Virus genome (UHGV): UHGV-0304565
Strand: one strand, 5' to 3'
Source: a virus
DNA length: 36,690 nucleotides
Positions 2,176 to 14,820 of the stretch are shown piece by piece. The first letter of the stretch is position 1. Every line of letters begins with the position of its first letter. The translations under genes were made by a program, and so were the position numbers. A model generated the notes under the pieces. That model made no database searches. It was not told where the DNA came from and saw nothing but the letters and a program-made list of their open reading frames with translations.

Positions 2176-2310
2176 CAGGGAAAAGGCTGCATCCCGCTAC
2201 AGAAACGGCTGGGTTGCCTTCGGGGAACGGCTGGAGGTTTTCAGGGAAACGGTCGAGTTGCCTGTGTGGATTTCGGGAAAAGGCTCGATGCCGGTTCAGG
2301 AACGGCGGCG
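2176..2310. repeat. Iteron-like array A: six copies of cAGGGAAAcGGCTg-type repeats
   Basis: Copies start at 2176, 2199, 2221, 2242, 2274, 2297 (spacings 23, 22, 21, 32, 23 bp), roughly two helical turns apart. Confidence 0.6.
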
Positions 2311-2620
2311 TACCGGTATAGCGAGAGGGAGAGTTGCGGCTACCCACCTGTAATGTGCGGGAAGAAGAGAGGCGCTCACGTAGGCGGACTTGCTTACCGC
2401 TGGATTCCCTCTGAATGCCCAGCTACAGCGTAATTGTGCCAGAGAGTCAGCGGGTCACAATCGATTTCAGTAGGTTTTCGGGGAGAGGATTATTCTGCCC
2501 ACCAGCCACCTTCGGCCACTAAATCAGAATAATGTAAAAAGTGTTCTCGGTACTGAACCTGAAAACTCACTGCCAAAACCACATTCACCGGAATAAAATC
2601 CTTTTTCGCCTTTGCGTTAT

Positions 2621-2655
2621 TGCGATAATAACGCCAACAAGAAAACATGTTGTTT
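2621..2655 (+). promoter_or_regulatory. Early promoter-operator module: extended -10 TGcGATAAT (2621-2629) plus palindrome AAAACA-tg-TTGTTT (2642-2655)
   Basis: About 35 bp (CGATAATwAACrCCAACAAGAAAACA..TTGTT) is shared with 4772-4805. Confidence 0.5.
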
Positions 2656-2667
2656 AAGGATTGCTTT

Positions 2668-2997
2668 ATGTTTGCAAATATCGACATCAACCAAATCAAG
2701 AAATTAACTCAAAAAGAGTTTGATCAGTTTTATGAGTTAGAAGGTTGGTCTTCCACTCTGATTAATTCGCGGTGGGTGCTTGAGCTGATGACTCGTGATG
2801 ACGCACCTGCTTTGATGATTTGCGACATGGGTGAAGATGCTGACTTTATGGATATGAGCGAATTTTGTGTGGACACATACAACCGCAGCCAGAAGTACTA
2901 CTTCACATGCGATAGCGAGAATGACGTGATTTCTAAGGTCTATCTTCACCTTGTCCAGCATTGGGACGTTCAGGAGTTTCTTGAAGTATTCGCGTAA
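2668..2997 (+). CDS. Hypothetical strongly acidic early protein (109 aa)
   Basis: ORF track 2647..2997; ATG 2668 preferred (SD aagga 2655-2659, 8-nt spacing; ATG 2647 lies inside the palindrome). About 20 percent D+E. Confidence 0.55.
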   Translation: MFANIDINQIKKLTQKEFDQFYELEGWSSTLINSRWVLELMTRDDAPALMICDMGEDADFMDMSEFCVDTYNRSQKYYFTCDSENDVISKVYLHLVQHWDVQEFLEVFA

Positions 2998-3103
2998 CCT
3001 CAACCAAAGCCAGCATTGCTGGCTTAACTTCTCTGTGGCCGCAGGGAAGAACCTGCATATCGCTCATGCACCTGATCAATATGCTTTGTAGCCGTTTTCT
3101 TAC

Positions 3104-3139
3104 TGGTATTATTTACGCCATTGAGAAAACAAGTTGTTT
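3104..3139 (+). promoter_or_regulatory. Early promoter-operator module: extended -10 TGgTATTAT (3104-3112) plus palindrome AAAACAA-G-TTGTTT (3126-3139)
   Basis: Same -10-to-palindrome spacing as the other copies. Confidence 0.45.
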
Positions 3140-3150
3140 ACGGAGTTGTG

Positions 3151-3462
3151 ATGAAGAAATCATTGGTTCTTGGTCTGGACAAAGACCAGAAGAGAAAAGA
3201 GAAGCCTGCGCTGGTTGCTCAATTAACTTTGCTGGACATCGTTGCCAATGGAACCTCTATTCGTCTGTTCCGTGAAACAGCGGTGTCTTTCGATAAAAAC
3301 ACCTTTACTCGTTATGTAATGAATGTTCGTCGCCAGCGTGGAAAAGGCTGGGTGGCATTTCAAAGAATGTGGCCGGAACATCAGCTCGAACTGGCTTTGA
3401 TGGAAGTTAACCGCGTGGCCCAGCAAGAAATTCAGAGAGCATCAGTGATGGCAATAGCCTGA
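3151..3462 (+). CDS. Hypothetical early protein (103 aa)
   Basis: ORF track 3121..3462 starts on TTG inside the palindrome; ATG 3151 with SD acggag preferred. Confidence 0.5.
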   Translation: MKKSLVLGLDKDQKRKEKPALVAQLTLLDIVANGTSIRLFRETAVSFDKNTFTRYVMNVRRQRGKGWVAFQRMWPEHQLELALMEVNRVAQQEIQRASVMAIA

Positions 3463-3496
3463 TAATGTGCAAGTGGTAATTAGTCGACAGTACGAC

Positions 3497-3524
3497 AGCC
3501 CCGCCATCCTTACGGGGCTTTTTG
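3497..3524 (+). terminator. Intrinsic terminator
   Basis: Stem agccccg (3497-3503) / cggggct (3513-3519), 9-nt loop, T-run 3519-3523. Confidence 0.7.
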
Positions 3525-3587
3525 TATTGTAAGTACATACTTACGGTTATAAAATAGAAAAATAACCAAGACACTACGGAGAGTGAA

Positions 3588-3983
3588 ATGACCGTTAAAC
3601 GCGAAAAACTGACAGTTGATGTTTACTATGCCTCTGAAACCGCCGAAGGTAAGAATGTGGCAAAAATCACCGTTGTTACGTACAACACCGAAACTGGTGC
3701 CGAAGTCCAGGCCAGTACGATCGTGCGTAAAGGTGATGCCTCCGGCGGCGAGTACGCGACTCAATACCAGTCTATTTTCGATGCAACTGACCCGCTGCTG
3801 CTGAAAATCGAGAACTACTTCCGCCAGGTTGATGAAGAGGTGTTTGAAACCATGATGAATATGGTTAACACCGTATTCGCCTCCAGCCTGAATACCAACA
3901 CTACCTGGATTGGTCAGTACGGCCTGCGCATTACCTCCGGCATTCCTGCTGACACCTTAATCCCTGAAAGCGTATTCGCTTAA
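3588..3983 (+). CDS. Hypothetical early protein (131 aa)
   Basis: Strong SD ggagag 6 nt before ATG; flanked by terminators on both sides. Confidence 0.65.
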   Translation: MTVKREKLTVDVYYASETAEGKNVAKITVVTYNTETGAEVQASTIVRKGDASGGEYATQYQSIFDATDPLLLKIENYFRQVDEEVFETMMNMVNTVFASSLNTNTTWIGQYGLRITSGIPADTLIPESVFA

Positions 3984-3992
3984 TCCTCTTTA

Positions 3993-4020
3993 AATGGCGC
4001 GTAAACCGCGCCATTTTCTT
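3993..4020 (+). terminator. Intrinsic terminator
   Basis: Stem aatggcgcg (3993-4001) / cgcgccatt (4007-4015), loop taaac, then ttttctt. Confidence 0.7.
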
Positions 4021-4027
4021 ATGCCCG

Positions 4028-4042
4028 ATAACAATTTGTTTT
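4028..4042. promoter_or_regulatory. Palindromic element AtAACAA-T-TTGTTTT
   Basis: Family member upstream of the 4101 gene. Confidence 0.4.
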
Positions 4043-4100
4043 CTGCCTTATCTGATTTGTGAAAATGATTTCACTGAAGCAACTTAATAAGGAAACCATC

Positions 4101-4475
4101 ATGGGGCTTGATATCTACATCGAGACGCAGCCAAAAAACGATCTGAATAACGATACATCCAGAAAGCGGGTTGCTTACTTCCGTAAGTTCAATGCACTCG
4201 TTGGGTGGATGGAGCGCAACGTAGGTGAAGTCGAAAATTGTGAGCTTTTAGAATTAACGATGAATGACATTTGTCTTCTGAAAGCTCATTTGATGCACAT
4301 AAACGAAAGTAATTGCGAAGAGTACTTGCCTACCCGGGAAGGTTTTTTCTTCGGCAGTCAGGAGTACGATGAAGGTTACTGGCATGATGTGGGGGAGTTG
4401 AAAGAGCTTGTGGAAGATCTGATTAAGAACCACGACTTTCACAATAACAGACTGACCTTCTGCGCCTGGTGGTAA
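4101..4475 (+). CDS. Hypothetical early protein (124 aa)
   Basis: ORF track 4059..4475; ATG 4101 preferred (SD aagga 4090-4094, 6-nt spacing). Confidence 0.55.
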   Translation: MGLDIYIETQPKNDLNNDTSRKRVAYFRKFNALVGWMERNVGEVENCELLELTMNDICLLKAHLMHINESNCEEYLPTREGFFFGSQEYDEGYWHDVGELKELVEDLIKNHDFHNNRLTFCAWW

Positions 4476-4477
4476 AT

Positions 4478-4621
4478 ATGGGCGATTTCAAGAAACGCCT
4501 GAAGGAAAGAGCCGAGATGGTCAGAAAGCAAAACGCCTCTTCTGTCATCAGATACGCAAGGCAGTTTAGTCGCAACAACAAATCAGTTGAGGAAAAGATC
4601 CTTAGCGTAATCGGTCGATAA
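4478..4621 (+). CDS. Possible small protein (47 aa), absent from the ORF track
   Basis: ATG 2 nt after the previous stop; GGTGG 5 nt upstream; followed by hairpin aaggcca/tggcctt (4627-4650). Below the 60-aa track cutoff. Confidence 0.25.
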   Translation: MGDFKKRLKERAEMVRKQNASSVIRYARQFSRNNKSVEEKILSVIGR

Positions 4622-4682
4622 TTATTAAGGCCATCAGCATTGGTGGCCTTAAATGACCATCCTGTTTCCCGCAGGCTAAAAA

Positions 4683-4755
4683 CACCAACCTCTTACCTCC
4701 AGGCAACCGACAAACCCACCTGTTCCCGTCCGGCTACCGCAACTTTCCACTTTGA
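4683..4755. repeat. Copy B of the degenerate ~80-bp repeat
   Basis: See 1506-1590. Confidence 0.5.
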
Positions 4756-4805
4756 CGCCTTATTCGTACAACGATAATTAACACCAACAAGAAAACAATT
4801 TGTTA
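4752..4805 (+). promoter_or_regulatory. Early promoter-operator module: -35 TTGACG (4752-4757), -10 GATAAT (4773-4778), palindrome AAAACAA-T-TTGTTA (4792-4805)
   Basis: Hexamers and palindrome read directly; 15-nt spacer is suboptimal. Confidence 0.5.
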
Positions 4806-4825
4806 TTTACGATAAGGAATTAATC

Positions 4826-5308
4826 ATGAATTTTATCGCTACTGTAAACGCACCCGCACATGGCAATATCGCTGTAACGTTCTCTGACATTGAAAAACGA
4901 GTACTTGGTGCATGGCGCGACAATGAGACGGTAGAACTGTCAGCACAAGAAAAATGCATTATTGCACGCGACATCATTTGTAATTGTCGTTACTCGCGGG
5001 TAATTGAGAAAGCGTATGTGGTAAATTCTGGATTCGGAACGTTCGTCTTTCCGGTGCGCTCCGGGCGATTCTGCCAGTCCAAGCTGATTGAGTTCGCTAC
5101 GCAGATTTCTGTCTGGATTAAAACTCAATCGTCGTTCAAATTTTCCGACGATGAAGCATTATCGCAGGGGATGCGGATCGCCAACAATGCAATTAAATGC
5201 AAAAACATTACGTATACCGCTGGCGTTGATACATGGAAACTGTTTTGCGCTAACTTTATGCTGAATGTATACGCAAGCAACCGCATCCACATCCTTGATG
5301 GCGTGTAA
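4826..5308 (+). CDS. Hypothetical early protein (160 aa)
   Basis: SD aagga 7 nt before ATG; weak hairpin plus ttctct downstream (5319-5343). Confidence 0.6.
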   Translation: MNFIATVNAPAHGNIAVTFSDIEKRVLGAWRDNETVELSAQEKCIIARDIICNCRYSRVIEKAYVVNSGFGTFVFPVRSGRFCQSKLIEFATQISVWIKTQSSFKFSDDEALSQGMRIANNAIKCKNITYTAGVDTWKLFCANFMLNVYASNRIHILDGV

Positions 5309-5343
5309 CTGAGAAGAGGGCCAGAAACGGCCCTTTCTCTATA

Positions 5344-5475
5344 GCCACCAGCTGCCGCAGGGAAATTTTCAGAAACGGCGAGGAACGTATTCATGAGCCG
5401 ACGGGGAACGGCCAGGATTTTTTCGGGAAACGGCTGCATTCGCCTTTATATAGAAAAAACATCGGGAAGCTGGTG
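5344..5475. repeat. Iteron-like array B (GGGAAACGGC-type repeats) flanked by inverted Chi-like octamers
   Basis: Repeat copies at 5359, 5370, 5381, 5402, 5424, 5463 (11/22-bp phasing); CCACCAGC at 5344-5351 and GCTGGTGG at 5468-5475. Confidence 0.55.
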
Positions 5476-5845
5476 GAATCCAACCAGCGGTTGTCGGACA
5501 GGTGAGCGGGGAAAATTATGATGACTTTCGTCGCCTGAGACATCCAGATTTCTTTCGTAGCGTAATCACATACGTGATTAAGTGGTGTGATTATGTGAAA
5601 AATCACGCGCACATAATACGCGAGCGGATACGGAACAAAACAAAATGCCGATCCGCGCCGACAATTAAACGCGGATCACATAGCAAGAATAAAAGCCAAT
5701 GATTAACCATACACCATAACGCAATATAACGCGATTTAAGCGCGTTAATGCGCTAAGTAATGGGTATATACTGGTAAGGATATAAAAGCGCGTCTGTGGC
5801 GTTATTTTGGCGCTTATTTTATGTTGTTGGAGTGAGTTAAAGACA

Positions 5846-5873
5846 ATAAAAAACGCGCCAATGATGGCGCGTT
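5846..5873 (-). terminator. Intrinsic terminator (minus strand), first of a tandem pair
   Basis: Stem aacgcgcca / tggcgcgtt with loop atga; A-run on the plus strand 5846-5851 gives a U-run on the minus transcript. Confidence 0.6.
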
Positions 5874-5893
5874 ATGGTGGAAGTATTGGAAAC

Positions 5894-5918
5894 GAAAAAA
5901 GCGCCCATAGTGGGCGCT
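5894..5918 (-). terminator. Intrinsic terminator (minus strand, possibly bidirectional)
   Basis: Stem agcgccca / tgggcgct (5900-5918), loop tag, plus-strand A6 before and tttta shortly after; the same 19-mer recurs at 6396-6414. Confidence 0.6.
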
Positions 5919-5923
5919 CGATT

Positions 5924-6154
5924 TTATTTATGTAAACTGATTTCAAATCCCATTTCTACAAACGCTTTTAGCATTAAAAATATATCAGCGTCATTCACGT
6001 CTGCTTTTTTCCGCTCCTGGTCGCTCAATAAGTCAATTTTGCGCGTCGTTTCATCTATAAGCTCGACTGCGCGCCCAGCGTAACCAGCGATCCCAGCGAT
6101 GCGATTAACATAATATTCATTATGGACGTTAACGCCAGCGATAAGAACAAACAT
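5924..6154 (-). CDS. Hypothetical protein (76 aa)
   Basis: SD aaggag upstream on the minus strand; last gene before the tandem terminators. Confidence 0.55.
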   Translation of the reverse strand: MFVLIAGVNVHNEYYVNRIAGIAGYAGRAVELIDETTRKIDLLSDQERKKADVNDADIFLMLKAFVEMGFEISLHK

Positions 6155-6426: not shown

Positions 6427-7077
6427 TTACGCTTTGAAAGCATCAGCTAAATAATTGTAGAAATCATTTTTAATGAAGCGATATTGCTGAGTACCAGCTT
6501 TCGCGCTCCCAGCTCCTTTGACTTTTTCAACAAGTCCGAGACGTTCGCAAAGATTGATCAACTGGTTGGCTTGAGTATAGCCAGCGTCCAATTTAATCTC
6601 GCACGCTTTTTTGGCTTCATTCATTAAATCGAAAACAGCGCCATTCGTGAACGTGTCGATCTCGTCGTTAATCATATCGATTAAAGCGAATACACGAGAT
6701 CCAGACATATCAGCGACGGAATAAACACACTTTCCAGCTTTAATGGATTTAACCAGATAAACCAGTTTTTCCAGTGAATAACTATTAGTCATAGCATCAC
6801 GGAAAAATACTTCTGGCGCTTGTTTGCTTGCTTTAATTGCATAGTAGAAAACAGAGCATAATTTTTCGTCTTCAACAGCGTTTACAACGTTGTTGATGAA
6901 GTAAGCAAGTTTAGTGGTTGCAGCTTGCATATTTGCTTTGTCTGCTTTAGTGTGCGTACCATTTTTATAATGTTCGTTATATGTTTGAGTTGCCAGATCT
7001 GCTTTTTCGCGCAGCTCGTCGGATACAATGGCAGCAGCTTCAATGATGGATTTTTTAGAAATGATAATGTTAGCCAT
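6427..7077 (-). CDS. Hypothetical protein (216 aa) with a helix-turn-helix-like C-terminal segment
   Basis: SD aagga 8 nt upstream; C-terminal YTQANQLINLCERLGLVEKVKG looks like a DNA-binding helix pair (pattern judgement only). Confidence 0.55.
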   Translation of the reverse strand: MANIIISKKSIIEAAAIVSDELREKADLATQTYNEHYKNGTHTKADKANMQAATTKLAYFINNVVNAVEDEKLCSVFYYAIKASKQAPEVFFRDAMTNSYSLEKLVYLVKSIKAGKCVYSVADMSGSRVFALIDMINDEIDTFTNGAVFDLMNEAKKACEIKLDAGYTQANQLINLCERLGLVEKVKGAGSAKAGTQQYRFIKNDFYNYLADAFKA

Positions 7078-7374: not shown

Positions 7375-7896
7375 TTAAAACGGAAGGATTCGTTCAACCC
7401 AATCGAAGAAAATAAGTATTTTTCTACCGTCTTCCAACTTAAGTGTGACTAGACAGGCGTCAACGCCATCTGACGTTCCCTCAATTTCGCGACCGTCTGC
7501 CATGTAGACCCTTATAGATTTGCCGTTTTGGTAAGCCTGACGACATATCTTAAAAAAGTCACGACGTGATGGCTGATTAACCATCTGTTCATTGTTTAGC
7601 GTTAGTCGACCTGTGAATGAAGTGTCAACCTCTTCTATGCCCGACTCAATTGTGCTAATGCGCTCAAGAGGGAGCCTTATACGATTTGTGTTGCTAAGCG
7701 GATCTGGTGTGAGGTTCAGCTTATTTCTTGCGCTCAATAGCCCGTAGACATACATGCAAAACACTTGGCCGTCTTCGAGAGTGACTCTTACAGGAAATTT
7801 TGCACTCCGCCAGAAGAGCAAGGTGCGCTCAGCATGTTCGTAGTCTCGCGGCCAGACTTCAGCCGGTATGCCGTAGGTGATGTCCAATGTTCTCAT
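7375..7896 (-). CDS. Hypothetical protein (173 aa)
   Basis: Start overlaps the stop of the upstream gene (ATGA); hairpin aataaccgg/ccggttatt downstream at 7338-7365. Confidence 0.55.
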   Translation of the reverse strand: MRTLDITYGIPAEVWPRDYEHAERTLLFWRSAKFPVRVTLEDGQVFCMYVYGLLSARNKLNLTPDPLSNTNRIRLPLERISTIESGIEEVDTSFTGRLTLNNEQMVNQPSRRDFFKICRQAYQNGKSIRVYMADGREIEGTSDGVDACLVTLKLEDGRKILIFFDWVERILPF

Positions 7897-8947: not shown

Positions 8948-10507
8948 CTAATCTCGTTTCAGAACTCCAAAATCGAATGCGCCATCAATAGGCAATACAC
9001 CTTCTGCAAAGCCAGGTGTGGTGTCGATGATGTGTTTTCGCTCATAAGAGTGAGACAACAGGTATTTGTTGCTAATGTCAATGAAATCAGTGATAAAACA
9101 CACGTTTGCCTGATTCTTCTTGGCTCGTAAGCCACGACCGACACGCTGCCTCATTTCAACTTCTGCTTTCCCACCACCAGCCAGAATGACCGCACCAACG
9201 CTTGGCACATCAACACCGACATCCAGAATAGTCGAGCCTATTAAAACATCTATTTCGCCAGACGCTAAACTGTTCAGCTTTGCTTGCCTTGTCGCCTGGT
9301 TCGATTCCCCATAGATGAAGTCAACTCTAAGGCCGGACTCCTTCATCATCTCCATCAGGATTTGCCCGTGGCGTTTAAGACGAACCAGAGTCATGCAATT
9401 GAGAGAATGTTGCTTATAGAGCAATGCTTCGCGCACAATGGCCTCGTTACGTCCCAAATTATACACGATCCCCAACTGATAAGCCTTTTGGTAGGCTGTG
9501 CTCATACCTACTCTAAAATTAAGGTGTTTGTTGGCAAGTTCCGCCTTGATTCTGACCTCGTCTGGCTTGTAAGCAACTTTATGATAAAGGAAGTACGGTT
9601 TTGCCAGAATGCCTCGATCAATCAGGTACTTTTCTGTGACTTTAATTTCAATTCGCCCGGCCACCGCCATCAGGCGCATGTTGGCTTCCGTCGAATCCTT
9701 CATGAACGGCGTGGCTGTAAGCGCCAGACGATAGTCTGCGTTCACACATAATCTGGCGATGTCATAGAAATTTGAGCCTGAAGACTCATGCGCCTCTTCC
9801 AGAATAAGAAGAGAGACACTTGAAAGGAAGCGTTTCACCAACTCCCGACGTTTGAGGTGGTAGCTCTTTTTATCTGGTGTTGCATCGCGTGGTGGTTCTT
9901 CAAGGAAACTTGCCAGAGTTTGAACTGTAGCGACGTTGATATGTCGTGATACCTGGAACTCACCCGAGCCAATGACTCCAACCTTTTGGTCTTTTAACCA
10001 CGGTTCGCCATTTTCGGCGCGGTAGTCGATGGATCTCTGGAAGTTTTCGGCCATTTGAAACATCAGAACAGAGCGGGTTGTTAAAAATAATGTCATTCGA
10101 CCGATACGTGCAGCTGCTTTGCAGGCAACGTTAGATTTCCCGCCACCAGTAGCGATCTGCGCAATCATCATTCCCTCTCGAACCAGTGTTTCCACAGTCT
10201 GATCCTGATACGCATAATCAGGATTGTATGGGAATGGGTTAACCGCCGGATTTGGTTTTCCAAGCGCCGGGGCTTTGTCTTTGCGGATATGAACACATTT
10301 GATGCCCGCCTTGTTCAAGTTCGCCGCTACAGGCTTGGCAAAGCCAGCAGGGAACGAGTTTTTACTCCAGTTGAACATCGTGCTTGTGCCCTTCCAGTCG
10401 CCAGTCTCGACTTCGTAGCTCAACATTTGCTGCACCAGTTGCTTTACCTTGTCATCTGCGCCAGAAATAAGCGCATTTACTGCGTTAGATACAATCCGAA
10501 CAGTCAT
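8948..10507 (-). CDS. Superfamily-2 DEAD/DEAH-box helicase (519 aa)
   Basis: Walker A ATGGGKS, DExH-like LILEEAHESSG, motif VI QRVGRGLR; SD aaggaaagagg upstream. Confidence 0.8.
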   Translation of the reverse strand: MTVRIVSNAVNALISGADDKVKQLVQQMLSYEVETGDWKGTSTMFNWSKNSFPAGFAKPVAANLNKAGIKCVHIRKDKAPALGKPNPAVNPFPYNPDYAYQDQTVETLVREGMMIAQIATGGGKSNVACKAAARIGRMTLFLTTRSVLMFQMAENFQRSIDYRAENGEPWLKDQKVGVIGSGEFQVSRHINVATVQTLASFLEEPPRDATPDKKSYHLKRRELVKRFLSSVSLLILEEAHESSGSNFYDIARLCVNADYRLALTATPFMKDSTEANMRLMAVAGRIEIKVTEKYLIDRGILAKPYFLYHKVAYKPDEVRIKAELANKHLNFRVGMSTAYQKAYQLGIVYNLGRNEAIVREALLYKQHSLNCMTLVRLKRHGQILMEMMKESGLRVDFIYGESNQATRQAKLNSLASGEIDVLIGSTILDVGVDVPSVGAVILAGGGKAEVEMRQRVGRGLRAKKNQANVCFITDFIDISNKYLLSHSYERKHIIDTTPGFAEGVLPIDGAFDFGVLKRD

Positions 10508-10552: not shown

Positions 10553-10572
10553 ATAAGTAAGTGATTACTTAG
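10553..10572. promoter_or_regulatory. ATAAGTAA-family motif with inverted repeat (AGTAA-gtga-TTACT) in the divergent intergenic region
   Basis: Read directly; adjacent TATAAT at 10548-10553. Confidence 0.4.
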
Positions 10573-10589
10573 TGGATTGTAGCAATAAA

Positions 10590-11270
10590 ATGGATGTAAA
10601 AATCACGATTTTGCAGGTTGATGTTGTCAACCTTCGCCCGAATACCTGGAACACCAATTCGGTTGGTGCGCAGAATTTTGAAAAACTGAAAGGTTCTATC
10701 GAAAAATTGGGCTTTTTTAAGCCAATTTTGGCTCGTGAACTTGAAGATGGATTTTTTGAAATCCTCGGCGGCGAACATCGCTGGCGTGCTGCTATTGAGC
10801 AAGGAATTTCAACGGTTCCGGTGCTTTCTGTGGGCAAAATTAGCGATGTCGTGGCAAAACAGATGTCACTGGTGGACAACGAGCGATACGGTGAAGACGA
10901 CCAAATCGCATTGCAACGCTTCATTGAAGAAATTCAGTCAGAACTTGACTATCAACTGTCTGAAATCGCCCCGTATGACGACGAAATCTCGATGGTTTTA
11001 GCAAAAGAGGCGGCAATCGACCTTGAAGCACTGGAGGCGTTGTCTCGTGGTAGTGATGAGCCTGTCGATACCGACAAACGAGAGAAAACCGAACGTGTGG
11101 GTGCGGAACATCAGACCATGCGCTTCAAAGTAACTTTCGATGCGTCAGATCGTGTTGCAGAAACCATAAAAAACATCATCAAAGAGCAGGCTATTAACAC
11201 CGGTAATGAAATGGAGAACGCTGGTGAGGCTCTGGTGTGGCTGGTCGACTACTACAAGGAGCGTATGTAA
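10590..11270 (+). CDS. ParB/Srx-like N-terminal domain protein 1
   Basis: ILGGEHRWRAA resembles the ParB GERRxRA box. ORF track starts at GTG 10572; start uncertain. Confidence 0.6.
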   Translation: MDVKITILQVDVVNLRPNTWNTNSVGAQNFEKLKGSIEKLGFFKPILARELEDGFFEILGGEHRWRAAIEQGISTVPVLSVGKISDVVAKQMSLVDNERYGEDDQIALQRFIEEIQSELDYQLSEIAPYDDEISMVLAKEAAIDLEALEALSRGSDEPVDTDKREKTERVGAEHQTMRFKVTFDASDRVAETIKNIIKEQAINTGNEMENAGEALVWLVDYYKERM

Positions 11271-11938
11271 TGACCAAAAAGTTTGAAATCGTATATCGCG
11301 ACCCGGCAGATCTTATTCCCTATGAGATGAATGCCAAAAAGCATGATGAACAGCAGATCCGAGATCTGGCCGCAGCCATTAAAAAGCGCGGATTTGACCA
11401 GCCAATTACGGTCGATAAGAACGACGTAATTATTACTGGCCACGGCCGCCGTGAGGCTGCAATTTTTGCTGGACTTGAGCGCGTACCGGTTATTGTTCGC
11501 GATGATCTCAGTGATGACGAGGTTCGTGCGAAGCGCCTTGAAGATAACCGACTTGCCAGCATTGATTACGATGCAATTAAGCTACAGAAAGAGCTTGAGT
11601 CGCTTGTTCTGGACGATATCGAGGTTTTCGGCTTTGAAGAGCGTGAGTTGAATGTTCTCGTTGGCAGTATGACAGAAGAAATGGACACCGACTCGCTAGT
11701 TATCGATCTTGGCGAAGAAACTAAACGACAGAAGGATGAACACACCGAGATCAGTCGTGAAGTTGCAGCGGAAGAAGTACGTGTTGTCGACGTATTGGGC
11801 TTTAAAACGCTCCCTGCTGGCTCTGCCATTGTTGTTGGTGATTTGCTTGCCCATATGGAAGAAATGACGGGAGAAAGCGGGGTAGACGCATTTGTGGCAT
11901 ATGCGGAGAAGATCTCTTCCGGGGAGATGGCTGCATGA
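11270..11938 (+). CDS. ParB/Srx-like domain protein 2
   Basis: ITGHGRREAA motif; ATG overlaps the previous stop (TAATG); SD aaggag 9 nt upstream. Confidence 0.6.
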   Translation: MTKKFEIVYRDPADLIPYEMNAKKHDEQQIRDLAAAIKKRGFDQPITVDKNDVIITGHGRREAAIFAGLERVPVIVRDDLSDDEVRAKRLEDNRLASIDYDAIKLQKELESLVLDDIEVFGFEERELNVLVGSMTEEMDTDSLVIDLGEETKRQKDEHTEISREVAAEEVRVVDVLGFKTLPAGSAIVVGDLLAHMEEMTGESGVDAFVAYAEKISSGEMAA

Positions 11939-12573
11939 GCAAATACATCATCAACGTATCGTTTCAGACACGCGTAAATAAAACCACGCGCACGTTGGAA
12001 ATCGCTGAGTCGTTCGGGCTTGGCCTGGACGAAAAAGAGTGGACGCTTTACGACAATCTGGAGCTGGAAGTGAAGCAGGGCGATGTGGTGTACATCACCG
12101 GCCAATCCGGTTCCGGCAAATCCGTTGTGCTGCGCGAGTTGCAACGACAGATGAAGGATGAAGGGCTGTCTGTAGCCTCCATCGATGATTTTACCTTCGA
12201 TAATGAGGTTAACGTCATCGATCAGTTGGGCAAAACGACCAGTGATGCGCTTGGGTTGTTATCTATGGCTGGTCTGAACGATGCATATCTGTTTGTTCGC
12301 AAGCCTTCTGAAATGTCAGACGGCCAGAAATATCGTCTCAAGATTGCCAAACTGATTGAGTCAGGCGCTAAAGTATGGGCTGCTGACGAGTTCGGCGCTG
12401 TTCTAGACCGTGTAACCGCTCAGGTTGTGGCGTCTAACCTCCAGCGTGCCGCTCGAAAGGTTGGTGCGACGGTAATGGTGGCGACGACTCACGAAGACCT
12501 GAAGAACGCGCTGCGCCCGGATATGCAGATCACCAAGCACTACAAAGAACGCGTGAAGGTGGAATATGCCTGA
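11935..12573 (+). CDS. ABC-type ATPase (minimal nucleotide-binding domain, 212 aa)
   Basis: Walker A GQSGSGKS, signature-like SDGQKYRL, Walker B VWAADEF, H-loop ATTHED; ATGA overlap with the upstream gene. Confidence 0.7.
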   Translation: MSKYIINVSFQTRVNKTTRTLEIAESFGLGLDEKEWTLYDNLELEVKQGDVVYITGQSGSGKSVVLRELQRQMKDEGLSVASIDDFTFDNEVNVIDQLGKTTSDALGLLSMAGLNDAYLFVRKPSEMSDGQKYRLKIAKLIESGAKVWAADEFGAVLDRVTAQVVASNLQRAARKVGATVMVATTHEDLKNALRPDMQITKHYKERVKVEYA

Positions 12574-12820
12574 TTTGAAGATCGTAGAGCTGAAGCCATC
12601 GAAAGAGACTGATAACAACAACGTGGAAGTCATCCGCCTGCTGGAAGAAGCACTTCAGCACGCCAGAGAAGGAAAAAGCCAGAGCCTGGCGCTGTTGATG
12701 ATCAACAACGACGGCAGTGTTCTTGATTGCTGGCATAACGGCGGGCGCCCGTATGTCATGGTAGGGGCGATGGAGTCTCTTCGCCTGGATTTCATCAATG
12801 CCAATATCGAGCGCAGGTGA
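12566..12820 (+). CDS. Hypothetical protein (84 aa)
   Basis: Overlaps the ATPase stop; SD aaggtgg upstream. Confidence 0.55.
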   Translation: MPDLKIVELKPSKETDNNNVEVIRLLEEALQHAREGKSQSLALLMINNDGSVLDCWHNGGRPYVMVGAMESLRLDFINANIERR

Positions 12821-12825
12821 TCGAC

Positions 12826-13716
12826 ATGGCAGATATCATCATCAAACGCTACCGCCCTGAAGAGTTTCCGCGTCATCTGGACTTTCTGGAGCGAATGACT
12901 GTCACAAAGGGAACTGTAGAGGACTGGCACGCTCTTAAGTCGCTTCACTACAAAACAGACGGCAAACCTTTCGCGCCAACATACTATCGCTGCGAACTGG
13001 ATGACCGTCTGGTGGGCGTCGTGGTTATGGCTTACCCGAAACTTCTGCTGGCACCTCGCCATCGCATGTTTCCTAAGTTGAAACCAACCACCAATACCAC
13101 CGTGGCTAACCAGTACTGGGGCCGGTACGTGAATAACAACTTTGCGGTGATCAGCCGCTCAGTTGTGGATACTCAGTACCGTGGCGTAGGCGTCTCTTAT
13201 CGAATGATTAACCTGGTTAGCAGGATGCATGACCGGCCAATCATTGAGATCCAGTCATCGATGAGCAAATACAATCCCTTCGCCATGAAAGCAGGGTTTA
13301 AGTTCATCCGCCCTGAGCGACCGAAGAGCTATGAAAGTGCACTGCGTGTGTTCCAGCGCCATTTCCGCTCCGACCCGGGTGATAACGAGGCGATCGTCAA
13401 AGAGTTGTTCGCTATGAGCGAGTCTCGTCGTCGCCGTGCACTGCGTGATCTGGTGGCGGACTACCACAAAAACAGTTCCCTGGCAAAAGCTGGGCGGAAT
13501 CGTGGCACGACGATTCAGGACATTGCCGACAGTCTGGTGGACGAGGCCAGCATTGTGAAGCTGCTCAAGGACATTCACAACCTGAGCTTTACGTCTCCGT
13601 TGTATGGTGTGTATCGAAACCCTGACTTTGGTCGTCGACTGCCTGACACGCTGCCACTGCTGGCATTCGACAAACAACCTTTGGATAAACCGTTAGAAAT
13701 TGCTTTACCGGCATAA
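12826..13716 (+). CDS. GNAT-like acyltransferase-fold protein with C-terminal extension
   Basis: GNAT motif A-like QYRGVGVSYRMINLV and motif B-like NPFAMKAGFKF. ORF track starts at GTG 12817 overlapping the previous stop; ATG 12826 used. Confidence 0.5.
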   Translation: MADIIIKRYRPEEFPRHLDFLERMTVTKGTVEDWHALKSLHYKTDGKPFAPTYYRCELDDRLVGVVVMAYPKLLLAPRHRMFPKLKPTTNTTVANQYWGRYVNNNFAVISRSVVDTQYRGVGVSYRMINLVSRMHDRPIIEIQSSMSKYNPFAMKAGFKFIRPERPKSYESALRVFQRHFRSDPGDNEAIVKELFAMSESRRRRALRDLVADYHKNSSLAKAGRNRGTTIQDIADSLVDEASIVKLLKDIHNLSFTSPLYGVYRNPDFGRRLPDTLPLLAFDKQPLDKPLEIALPA

Positions 13717-13725
13717 GGATTTGCC

Positions 13726-13992
13726 ATGACGTTAACCGATAAACAAAAGGACATCATCAAAACGCTCAATCTCGGTTATGAGCGAGGTCATCTACTTGAC
13801 CTGGACGAATTGCTTGAAGTTTTGCCGTACAAGACAACCAAGCAAAGTATCCAGTTCTCAATTCGCGCTCTGATAAAAAAGGGGCTGGTGGAGAAAGGGC
13901 ATACGCGCCAACGCAGTGACAATCGCTATCACCGCCGAACTCTTGGGTTAACTACTTTAGGTCGAGCCAAAGCGAAGTTACTGGTGATGTAA
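13726..13992 (+). CDS. Small basic protein (88 aa), possible winged-helix DNA-binding regulator
   Basis: SD aagga 7 nt upstream; segment SIQFSIRALIKKGLVEKG resembles MarR/PadR-type recognition helices (pattern judgement). Confidence 0.45.
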   Translation: MTLTDKQKDIIKTLNLGYERGHLLDLDELLEVLPYKTTKQSIQFSIRALIKKGLVEKGHTRQRSDNRYHRRTLGLTTLGRAKAKLLVM

Positions 13993-14016: not shown

Positions 14017-14071
14017 CCTGCTTCTGTATATATAAATAATAAGTAACTTATTAAATATATACGGAAGCAGG
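14017..14071. promoter_or_regulatory. Long near-perfect palindrome (about 18-bp arms) centred on AATAAGTAACTTATT
   Basis: Left arm cctgcttctgtatatata (14017-14034) against right arm tatatacggaagcagg (14056-14071), one mismatch. Confidence 0.5.
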
Positions 14072-14187: not shown

Positions 14188-14820
14188 ATGACGGTCGAAA
14201 AAGACGAGGTAAAAACTCGCCTGACACCAGCGGAGTGGGCCGAAGCTGAAGCCAAATGGACGTCAGGCGAATATACACTCTCAAAGCTGGAGGAAGAGTA
14301 CGGCATTCGTCGTGAAACACTCTCCAGACATTTCAAAAAGCGAGGATTAGAGAAAGGCGCGGACTCTGTTGGGAAGATGGTTCGTGAGTCTCTTAAATCT
14401 GACGCAGAGCTTCGCGCTAAAGCCCGTGCGGAAAAGATAGAAGAACGTCGTACACGTTATGACGGCTGGGCGTATGCGTTGGGGCAGATGGTGATGGTCG
14501 AAGTCACTACGGCCAAACGTGAGGGTAAGCCTTTAGGGGCGATTGAGGATTCTCTCAAGAGCTTACAGAGAGCCAGTAATACCCTTGCAAAATGCTTTGA
14601 AGTTTCGTCCAAAGCATTGGGCATGGATCATGCGGAAAATGACGAGGAAGAAATTCCGAACCTGGTATTTGGTGAGCTTACGCCTTCCCAGGTGGCGAAA
14701 TTACGTCAGGAAGACGACGAGCCTGAAATCATCGATGACGAATTGCTTGAGACGTTGGAAGAAGAAACTCTAAGCGAATTTGATGCGACAGATGATGGAA
14801 GTGAAGGGGAGGACGAATAA
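14188..14820 (+). CDS. terS: Terminase small subunit (putative)
   Basis: Position immediately upstream of terL with 1-nt stop/start overlap; N-terminal HTH-like segment; acidic C-terminus. Confidence 0.6.
   Translation: MTVEKDEVKTRLTPAEWAEAEAKWTSGEYTLSKLEEEYGIRRETLSRHFKKRGLEKGADSVGKMVRESLKSDAELRAKARAEKIEERRTRYDGWAYALGQMVMVEVTTAKREGKPLGAIEDSLKSLQRASNTLAKCFEVSSKALGMDHAENDEEEIPNLVFGELTPSQVAKLRQEDDEPEIIDDELLETLEEETLSEFDATDDGSEGEDE

Follow-up and report, generated by a model that had tools for sequence, protein, structure and literature searches.

Phased repeat arrays and clustered Chi sites mark a conserved, probably protein-bound cis-element of SSU5-type phage-plasmids

What is the role of an array of short phased repeats located where two transcription units converge and no gene is encoded? 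This question is raised by the virus genome UHGV-0304565, a stretch of 36,690 nucleotides (the window) which belongs to a phage-plasmid of Escherichia coli of the SSU5/pHCM2 type. A preliminary description of this DNA had proposed that the array, flanked by inverted Chi octamers, has the architecture of a replication origin or of a major regulatory hub. Here we report that the idea of a functional cis-element stands, while that of a plasmid replication origin fails. Judging from the sequence, we estimate a probability of about 70% that this array (array B) and a second one (array A) are binding arrays for a DNA-binding protein encoded by the element, acting independently of RepA.

Array B proper extends from 5357 to 5436 on the plus strand and contains five direct copies in 11/22-bp phase. 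Direct reading of the sequence confirmed that the iteron-like repeats are real and that their reported coordinates were correct within 1 base. The consensus is C(A/G)GG(A)AAACGGC, with five to six copies between 5358 and 5434 and a degenerate one at 5463. On the plus strand, the copies are CAGGGAAATTT (5358), CAGAAACGGC (5370), GAGGAACGTA (5380), CGGGGAACGGC (5402) and CGGGAAACGGC (5424), followed by the degenerate CGGGAAGCTG (5463). Four of them follow one another at intervals of exactly 22 bp (5360/5382/5404/5426), with a further copy interleaved at +11. An invariant T-tract precedes the last copy (TTTTTTCGGGAAACGGC), and the degenerate sixth repeat, CGGGAAGC, overlaps the right Chi octamer, GCTGGTGG (5463 to 5476, plus strand). 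Between them lies a conserved TATAG (5449 to 5453, plus strand), which starts 17-26 bp past the start of the last repeat. The same pentamer follows array A (2317-2321), and its distance from the last repeat is nearly fixed in all relatives, the most distant included. As a separate observation, TATAG resembles both the core of the RepA iteron (CACTATAG) and a weak -10 element.

Array A (2176 to 2310, plus strand) is located in another unannotated gap and carries six copies of the motif, spaced by 22, 22, 22, 31 and 22 bp, that is, by two or three helical turns. The kinship between the two arrays that had been suspected is real: they share the same repeat motif, in the same orientation, 3.2 kb apart. 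With up to one mismatch allowed, GGGAAACGGC has 10 matches in the window where 1.75 would be expected, a count reached in 0 of 100 shuffles; six of the ten matches are inside the arrays (four in A, two in B). The looser form G[AG]AA[AC]GG recovers 6 + 4 array copies, all on the plus strand. For genome-wide tests we used a complete relative, the E. coli EC052 plasmid (110,648 bp), assembled from four fetched stretches. Across this 110.6-kb plasmid, the G[AG]AA[AC]GG / GGAAACGG motif clusters at arrays A and B only.

The region shows 96-97% identity to the Escherichia phage-plasmids CMS-2020a, PhiR41_1 and Cyrano (pLF82), and 84-86% to the Klebsiella relatives. A 630-bp query around array B matched 239 of 5426 complete E. 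coli genomes, in every case on a plasmid, of about 100-120 kb. At blastn sensitivity the query matched 784 plasmids from Klebsiella, Escherichia, Enterobacter, Yersinia (pMT1), Salmonella (pHCM2), Citrobacter and Cronobacter, nearly all of them typed as IncFIB and non-mobilisable. The plasmid matches, together with the IncFIB typing, place the element in the SSU5/pHCM2/pMT1 phage-plasmid supercluster. Phage-plasmids of this type are thus common, with hundreds of representatives among Klebsiella, Salmonella, Enterobacter and Yersinia plasmids in addition to those of E. coli. They carry resistance genes, among them CTX-M-55 and dfrA51, which are both present in a relative that we examined.

The gap around array B was aligned in 12 sequences, representing Escherichia, Klebsiella, Enterobacter, Cronobacter, Salmonella pHCM2, Kluyvera, Y. 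pestis pMT1 and Buttiauxella. Its length (~615-690 bp) and the order of its parts are preserved throughout. The best-conserved parts are the upstream terminator, the block GTCCACCAGCTGCCGCAGGGAAA, the repeats (with TTTTCGGGAAACGGC invariant) and two minus-strand terminators, with a mean column identity of 0.81-0.87 against 0.56-0.58 in the middle of the gap. Compared with distant relatives, the core of the array is 78-84% identical, whereas third codon positions of the adjacent gene are only 44-47% identical, which shows purifying selection on this non-coding DNA. Such selection on the array, its Chi bracket and the terminators in turn points to a functional cis-element. The same pattern is seen in 48 distinct versions from IMG/VR and plasmid loci, and the gap and arrays persist even in relatives whose neighbouring protein has diverged to about 30% identity. 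Array A, its flanks conserved as well, is likewise present in most relatives, including those from Kluyvera and Buttiauxella, many IMG/VR contigs and the distant relative L147.

The way in which the arrays vary is also informative. Length changes occur by whole units, and the spacers vary in sequence while the motif remains constant. Plasmid pA320 (L011) carries one extra exact 22-bp tandem unit (CGGGAAACGGCCAGGATTTTTT), aligned to window positions 5402-5423; such an exact duplication shows that the repeat copy number changes by slippage or unequal exchange. Array A of Buttiauxella is shorter by 53 bp between two repeats, as counted from the alignment. A separate observation concerns the right-hand edge of array B: about 200 bp of the window (5437-5620) differ from some E. 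coli relatives (pLAO4, pA320) that are otherwise close in the array and in the parts to its right. The divergent stretch begins right after the last repeat and rejoins near 5620; it is a recombination patch with its left edge at the array and Chi.

Could the array act as RNA rather than as DNA? It might be a GGA-rich protein sponge of the CsrB type, or a structured non-coding RNA closed by a CCACCAGC/GCTGGTGG stem. The region holds about nine GGA triplets in 150 nt, and single-sequence folds form this long-range stem, with the array closed by the Chi inverted repeat (z -1.8 for the plus strand, -2.4 for the minus strand). Moreover, the inverted repeat reaches past the Chi octamer in all four types of flank found among relatives. 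The conserved CAGAAACGG copies, however, are devoid of GGA, and for this reason we rejected the CsrA-sponge idea. Rfam 15 gave no match at gathering thresholds, and a permissive search returned only terminator-like sub-threshold hits (5838-5934). In the array region, RNAalifold supported the terminator hairpin at 5317-5340 alone; the rest of the gap had no covariation support (covariation term +0.81, in effect about zero), and mutated stem arms in Y. pestis and Buttiauxella are uncompensated. Finally, an RNA would not require a strict helical period. The strict period, the free spacers and the unit-wise indels together argue for a protein-bound DNA array, and an RNA-level element appears very improbable.

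We then considered whether the array could be the replication origin of the plasmid state, or a copy-control iteron locus for RepA such as incA of P1. The iteron-like look, the 22-bp period and the presence of a second array would all suit this proposal, and these plasmids are iteron-regulated IncFIB/IncpKPHS1 replicons (PMC6735626). Their published iterons, however, adjoin repA (PMC6735626). In EC052, repA is found at 81,235-82,290, about 36 kb from the array by the short way round the circle, and is flanked on both sides by 21-bp iterons (ATCCACTATAGAGAG), DnaA boxes (TTATCCACA) and GATC clusters: this locus is a classical oriR of the P1/RepFIB type. The RepA iteron ATCCACTATAGAGAG is unrelated to the array motif CGGGAAACGGC. 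In addition, the array is without a DnaA box, and the Cronobacter member of the family, which has a different replicon typing, nevertheless retains the array. The proposal of a plasmid origin is therefore already close to refuted.

If not RepA, which protein would bind the arrays? The preliminary description had pointed to a helicase gene and a possible DNA-binding protein gene to the right of the gap; both are present. The most likely binder of the arrays is a family-specific protein of 216 amino acids (aa), whose gene occupies 6427 to 7077 on the minus strand, last in the helicase operon that ends at this gap, and whose predicted structure has an N-terminal helical region and a C-terminal winged-helix DNA-binding domain. 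The AlphaFold (AF2) model shows long N-terminal helices and the C-terminal winged helix with a confidence score (pLDDT) of 84. The protein is limited to these elements: a word-indexed search gave 102 clusters, and 1.84 billion proteins yielded 23 representatives. Deep synteny is what ties it most strongly to the arrays. In the relatives L147 and L148, where it is only 30-32% identical, the synteny of helicase, winged-helix gene and gap is retained: an ABC-type ATPase, two ParB_N proteins and the divergent SF2 helicase are followed by the winged-helix gene and by a non-coding gap of 600-750 bp, beyond which small genes lie on the opposite strand. In L147 (55% GC), the gap holds at least 8 copies of GGAAACGG at the same end, and this relative has a second array of 10 copies, 4.7 kb away and in the same orientation. 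In L148 (33% GC), the sites are two of CAAAACGCC and two of GGGAA(A/C)GTTTTCCC. The putative recognition helix, (G)YTQxNQL, is the best-conserved stretch across the family of the 216-aa protein, just as the GGGAA(A/C) core of the sites stays constant. The link is one of association and falls short of proof.

The second feature of the locus is its Chi octamers. Both octamers of the proposed inverted bracket are real, although their coordinates had been given 1 base off. The left Chi (CCACCAGC when read on the plus strand) is located at 5345 to 5352 on the minus strand, within the conserved block GTCCACCAGCTGCCGCAGGGAAA, and the right one, GCTGGTGG, at 5469-5476 on the plus strand. The two form part of a 12-nt inverted repeat, CCACCAGCTGCC/GGAAGCTGGTGG, the left arm of which spans 5345-5356. 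The left Chi is exact in most relatives, with one mismatch in Y. pestis and Buttiauxella, and both octamers of the bracket are gone from the most distant relatives. On the right of the array, a plus-strand Chi is found in four unrelated sequence contexts among relatives, with 9-12 bp of complementarity to the left arm; this recurrence indicates that either Chi or the inverted repeat is under selection there. It is worth noting that RecBCD recognises GCTGGTGG on approach from its 3' side. Accordingly, both octamers would face enzymes moving towards the array.

The frequency of Chi in the element, which might have been that of chance, is far above it genome-wide. The window contains 10 Chi octamers against 0.75 expected. 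By frequency, Chi comes third among the octamers of the E. coli relative, with 28 copies, and is the commonest one in the Klebsiella relative, with 30; its density in the element, about 1 per 4 kb, equals that of the E. coli chromosome. The octamers are concentrated between arrays A and B: in the E. coli relative, a stretch of 4 kb holds 7 of 28 (P ~0.008 under random placement), and in the Klebsiella one, 4.6 kb hold 10 of 30 (P ~5e-5). The same enrichment is found in the distant relatives L144 and L147. One further Chi in this interval (2499 to 2506, minus strand) lies in a conserved block about 190 bp past array A. Several inter-array Chi, in either orientation, are inside intergenic terminator-like hairpins of the form AAGGCCACCA-loop-TGGTGGCCTT, with GCCACC/GGTGGC stems. 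In relatives, an extra 282-bp gene lies between two such Chi hairpins (7376 and 7855 in the EC052 record), while the window has a single degenerate hairpin, AAGGCCATCAGCATTGGTGGCCTT (4627 to 4650), which is a degenerate copy of the Chi-bearing terminator hairpins that lie between the small genes of the A-to-B interval in relatives. The hairpins look as if they were cassette junctions.

Chi is known to regulate RecBCD in phages and plasmids that lack a RecBCD inhibitor, as in lambda red gam Chi+ and in the protection of rolling-circle plasmids, and Bobay et al. reportedly described Chi as a RecBCD regulator in phages in 2013. The Chi octamers of our element resemble those of known phages and plasmids in being exact and about 8-fold over-represented. 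They differ in being concentrated in one interval of 3-5 kb, in both orientations and partly within terminator hairpins. They also differ in that two of them enclose a repeat array and form an inverted repeat of 9-12 bp around it. We found no description of such an arrangement.

Our model brings these observations together. We infer the identity of the binder, the looping and the replication role; each is our suggestion. A protein encoded by the element would bind the helically phased sites of arrays A (2176-2310) and B (5357-5436), coating each array on one face of the helix with the help of the phased T-tract. The two arrays, having the same orientation and lying 3.2 kb apart, could then pair through looping. 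The resulting complex would serve as a cis-site for replication in the phage mode, or for its control, with the ori/crr pair of P4 as the best analogy. From whichever side RecBCD came, an outward-facing Chi octamer would stand in its way and switch the enzyme to the recombination mode ahead of the array. Among the possible uses of the arrays, we rank phage-mode (non-RepA) replication or its control first. Second comes transcription, through looping or an activator site; a role in packaging or at DNA ends is third, and that of a centromere last. The first place is given to a phage-mode origin because phased arrays of this kind are typical of origins, and the O-type origins of lambdoid phages even share the nonamer and its period. 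Taken by itself, this use remains a tentative proposal; averaged with the binding of the arrays by a protein, the explanation as a whole comes somewhat higher, if still short of even.

Several observations weigh against this model. Y. pestis pMT1 has kept array B while array A is absent, so whatever array B still does in that plasmid cannot depend on pairing. Within 7 kb of the array the search revealed no DnaA box. Nor is an A+T-rich unwinding element conserved beside either array: the GC content around the array is 0.38-0.54, with no conserved A+T block. Near the arrays we found no initiator of a known family, and the replisome genes (for a DnaB-like helicase, a primase and DnaE) are 40-60 kb distant in EC052. 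GC skew is monotonic and tracks gene orientation, and is uninformative on the position of an origin. Chi orientation shows no significant polarity switch of the origin type at the array, with concordance for 20 of 28 sites in the E. coli relative (permutation P 0.23) and 19 of 30 in the Klebsiella one (P 0.79). The winged-helix structural match of the 216-aa protein is generic (Foldseek E ~0.1), and an autoregulatory iteron at the promoter of its gene, a candidate that we rejected, occurs in the window only and is not conserved.

How does this module compare with known origins? The satellite phage P4 has an ori and a crr, two clusters of octamer repeats for the alpha protein that are about 4.5 kb apart and are both needed in cis. 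Similarly, our arrays are two clusters of one short direct repeat, in the same orientation and a few kb apart, in a hybrid of phage and plasmid, and away from any host-type origin. Unlike in P4, where the binder is the primase-helicase alpha and the origin is proven, the candidate here is a winged-helix protein, and no unwinding element was found. The oriR of P1 and RepFIB, with incC and incA, resembles our arrays in having repeats of about 20 bp in helical phase arranged at two places. Array B, however, has no adjacent rep gene, no DnaA box and no GATC/A+T-rich block, and the RepFIB-type origin of the family is elsewhere.

A third comparison is offered by the lambdoid ori embedded in an O-like initiator gene (phrog_9773 group), which shares the nonamer GGAAACGGC, the 22-bp period and a number of 4-6 repeats with our arrays. 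Yet lambdoid iterons are dyads (CGGC-N6-GCCG) inside the initiator gene, and are followed by an A+T-rich GATC region and a DnaA box, unlike the arrays. Searches with tblastn, BLASTP and hidden Markov models (HMM) revealed no O-like initiator homologue in the window or in the complete relative, and no open reading frame (ORF) spans the arrays. A lambdoid O-like initiator relative in the element was therefore rejected, the only weak hit being the primase. Given the breadth of the search, the shared nonamer may be a coincidence.

The first competitor of the replication role is transcriptional control, with the arrays as operator or activator sites for a regulator. In one version, the arrays would loop out and silence the 3-kb cassette of small genes between them, as OL and OR do in lambda; the cassette (2647-5308) does have array A upstream and array B downstream, and some of its genes are expressed in the lysogen (PMC9928086). 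In the other version, the last repeat would cover the -35 position of an activator-dependent promoter with TATAG as a weak -10, so that array A would fire rightwards into the cassette and array B into the gap, antisense to the minus-strand operon. The position of TATAG, fixed at 17-26 bp past the last repeat at both arrays in all relatives, is consistent with such promoters, and the hairpin at 5899-5919 could end a plus-strand transcript. Two candidate regulators, the FljA-like and the winged-helix proteins, are encoded nearby. On the other hand, a consensus scan for sigma-70 promoters came out empty at both arrays, and in most relatives TATAG is without the -7 T. An operator made of five to ten phased direct repeats would be unusual, and the gap shows no RNA covariation. 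The array motif is not known to match the consensus of any E. coli regulator. We regard transcriptional control as unlikely, if the strongest of the competing explanations.

The clustering of Chi invites a different explanation, in which the interval from A to B forms the end of the virion DNA, whether next to pac or as a terminal redundancy. The arrays would be recognised by the packaging machinery, and the two-orientation Chi island would shield the injected linear DNA from RecBCD and drive its RecA-dependent circularisation into the plasmid state. The rank of Chi as top octamer in the Klebsiella relative and third in the E. coli one, its clustering between the arrays, seen also in L144 and L147, and its occurrence in both orientations and within terminator hairpins all fit this scenario. 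So do the type of the large terminase TerL (Terminase_6N/3) and the phased repeats typical of small-terminase sites, among them pacL/pacR of SPP1 and cosB of lambda. Against it, the terminase genes begin 8.7 kb to the right of array B (TerS starts at 14188, TerL at 14820), the Chi octamers flanking array B are lost in the most distant relatives, and pMT1 retains array B although it reportedly shares only about half of pHCM2. No description of SSU5 virion ends was found in the searchable literature. A packaging role thus seems rather improbable.

A broader form of the same idea would make the A-to-B interval a dedicated DNA-end and recombination module of SSU5-type phage-plasmids. Here, arrays for the winged-helix protein would bracket the Chi island of 3-5 kb, in both orientations and partly in terminator hairpins, and the island would be either pac-proximal, terminally redundant virion DNA or an entry point for recombination-dependent replication. 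RecBCD would be stopped at both ends of injected or rolling-circle DNA, RecA would be loaded, and circularisation into the plasmid state or the formation of concatemers would follow. Such a module would be the host-dependent counterpart of Cre-lox in P1 or of Gam/Red in lambda, but we consider it a long shot.

Lastly, the arrays could be a centromere-like site for partition or positioning, on which a winged-helix adaptor binds direct repeats, as in tubC-TubR or parC-ParR of R1. The likeness consists of two phased clusters of short direct repeats and a neighbouring protein with a fold match of the TubR type. The location in a non-transcribed convergent gap and the conservation in pMT1 and pHCM2, which persist as plasmids, would also suit a centromere. 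Unlike in those systems, no cognate NTPase is adjacent, and the operon has no gene of the ParA, ParM or TubZ type. The fold match is generic, the similarity to TubR being no better than those to ArsR and MarR. A separate ParA-type system is encoded elsewhere (an AAA ATPase and a small protein at 47.3-48.3 kb of EC052). The Par system differs between members, being P1-type ParAB in pMT1 and pHCM2, while the arrays are constant. We hold a centromere to be improbable too.

We return to the preferred reading, that of protein-binding arrays. The module consists of a phased repeat array of a familiar kind with an uncharacterised winged-helix partner and an unusual, conserved link to clustered Chi. 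The cis-acting DNA sites of SSU5-type phage-plasmids are essentially unmapped except for those of RepA and Par, and in the searchable literature we found no description of the gap, the arrays, the Chi island, the SSU5 virion termini or the lytic origin. What is newly defined here is a deeply conserved module, without annotation in the records examined. It combines the pair of phased arrays with an interval rich in Chi and with a winged-helix protein that is confined to the family and whose gene adjoins an SF2 helicase operon. If it were a lytic origin, a packaging or end region, or the switch for either, it would be the natural handle for curing, engineering or tracking these elements, and would show a mobile element arranging the Chi/RecBCD activity of its host around one locus. 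Should the arrays be only an ordinary operator array, the interest would be modest.

We turn to the remaining parts of the gap. The non-coding region extends from 5309 to 5923 (~615 bp), between a plus-strand gene for a 160-aa protein (4826 to 5308) and the first minus-strand gene (5924 to 6154); it contains no conserved ORF and, in most relatives, no annotated gene. The upstream protein has a confident structure model and no fold match. The annotated records that we examined show no feature in the gap, save for an occasional call of a 50-aa ORF by the annotation pipeline PGAP (5391 to 5543, minus strand; WP_023145150.1). Lying across part of the array and broken up by indels in relatives, this ORF is very probably an artefact. 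It and two other ORFs, of 73 and 66 aa, were rejected as small proteins of the gap, none of them being conserved.

The terminator of the 160-aa gene is a plus-strand hairpin at 5317 to 5340 (GGGCC-AGAAAC-GGCCC followed by TTTCTC), in which loop and 3' arm together make up one more copy of the repeat, so that an extra CAGAAACGGC is found at 5322. Its stem is preserved in relatives through compensatory and G-U changes (GGGCC/GGCCC versus GGGGC/GCCCC). At the other end, the tandem terminators noted earlier are present as two hairpins that close the minus-strand operon (5873-5852 and 5919-5899, minus strand); the second is also terminator-like on the plus strand, and both are invariant even in relatives whose proteins are 53-63% identical. 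The variable middle of the gap (5477 to 5851) contains ATCAC/GTGAT repeats, GATC sites and a conserved block, TAATGGGTAT(A/G)TAC, at 5762-5775; neither a conserved ORF nor a supported RNA structure was found in it. The other inverted repeats of the preliminary description were recovered here, namely the ATCAC family at 5563-5617 and GATCCGCG/CGCGGATC at 5650-5677, the GATCCGCG hairpin being restricted to the E. coli lineage.

To the right of the gap, the FljA-like regulator is encoded at 7375 to 7896 and the SF2 helicase at 8948 to 10507. Apart from these two, the two ParB_N proteins and the ABC-type ATPase, the neighbouring genes are of unknown function in Pfam and PHROGs. Two paralogous ParB_N genes, the ATPase gene and genes for proteins of 299 and 88 aa (10572-13992) form the first part of a plus-strand operon that continues into the terminase genes; the 88-aa protein is winged-helix-like by eye. 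The block of ATPase, two ParB_N genes and divergent helicase is conserved to the most distant relatives. The gap immediately before the gene for the small terminase contains a long A+T-rich palindrome (14018-14066; CTTCTGTATATATAAATAATAAGTAACTTATTAAATATATACGGAAG), a possible late promoter, regulator site or pac candidate.

Two further observations concern the left part of the window. Upstream of array A, about 600 bp (1400-2000) consist almost only of A and C on the plus strand, with a GC skew of about -0.5, an AT skew of about +0.5 and repeats such as CGCCATTACCCA; one record has a hypothetical ORF there. Finally, a motif, CCAACAAGAAAACAAnnTGTT, occurs just upstream of many small genes (131, 1239, 2630-2648, 4780-4798 and 14105 in the window) and at about 20-30 places in complete relatives. 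In the E. coli relative, no octamers are commoner than GAAAACAA and AGAAAACA, with 30 and 29 copies, and CCAACAAGAAAACAAnnTGTT is probably the element's own promoter or operator motif.

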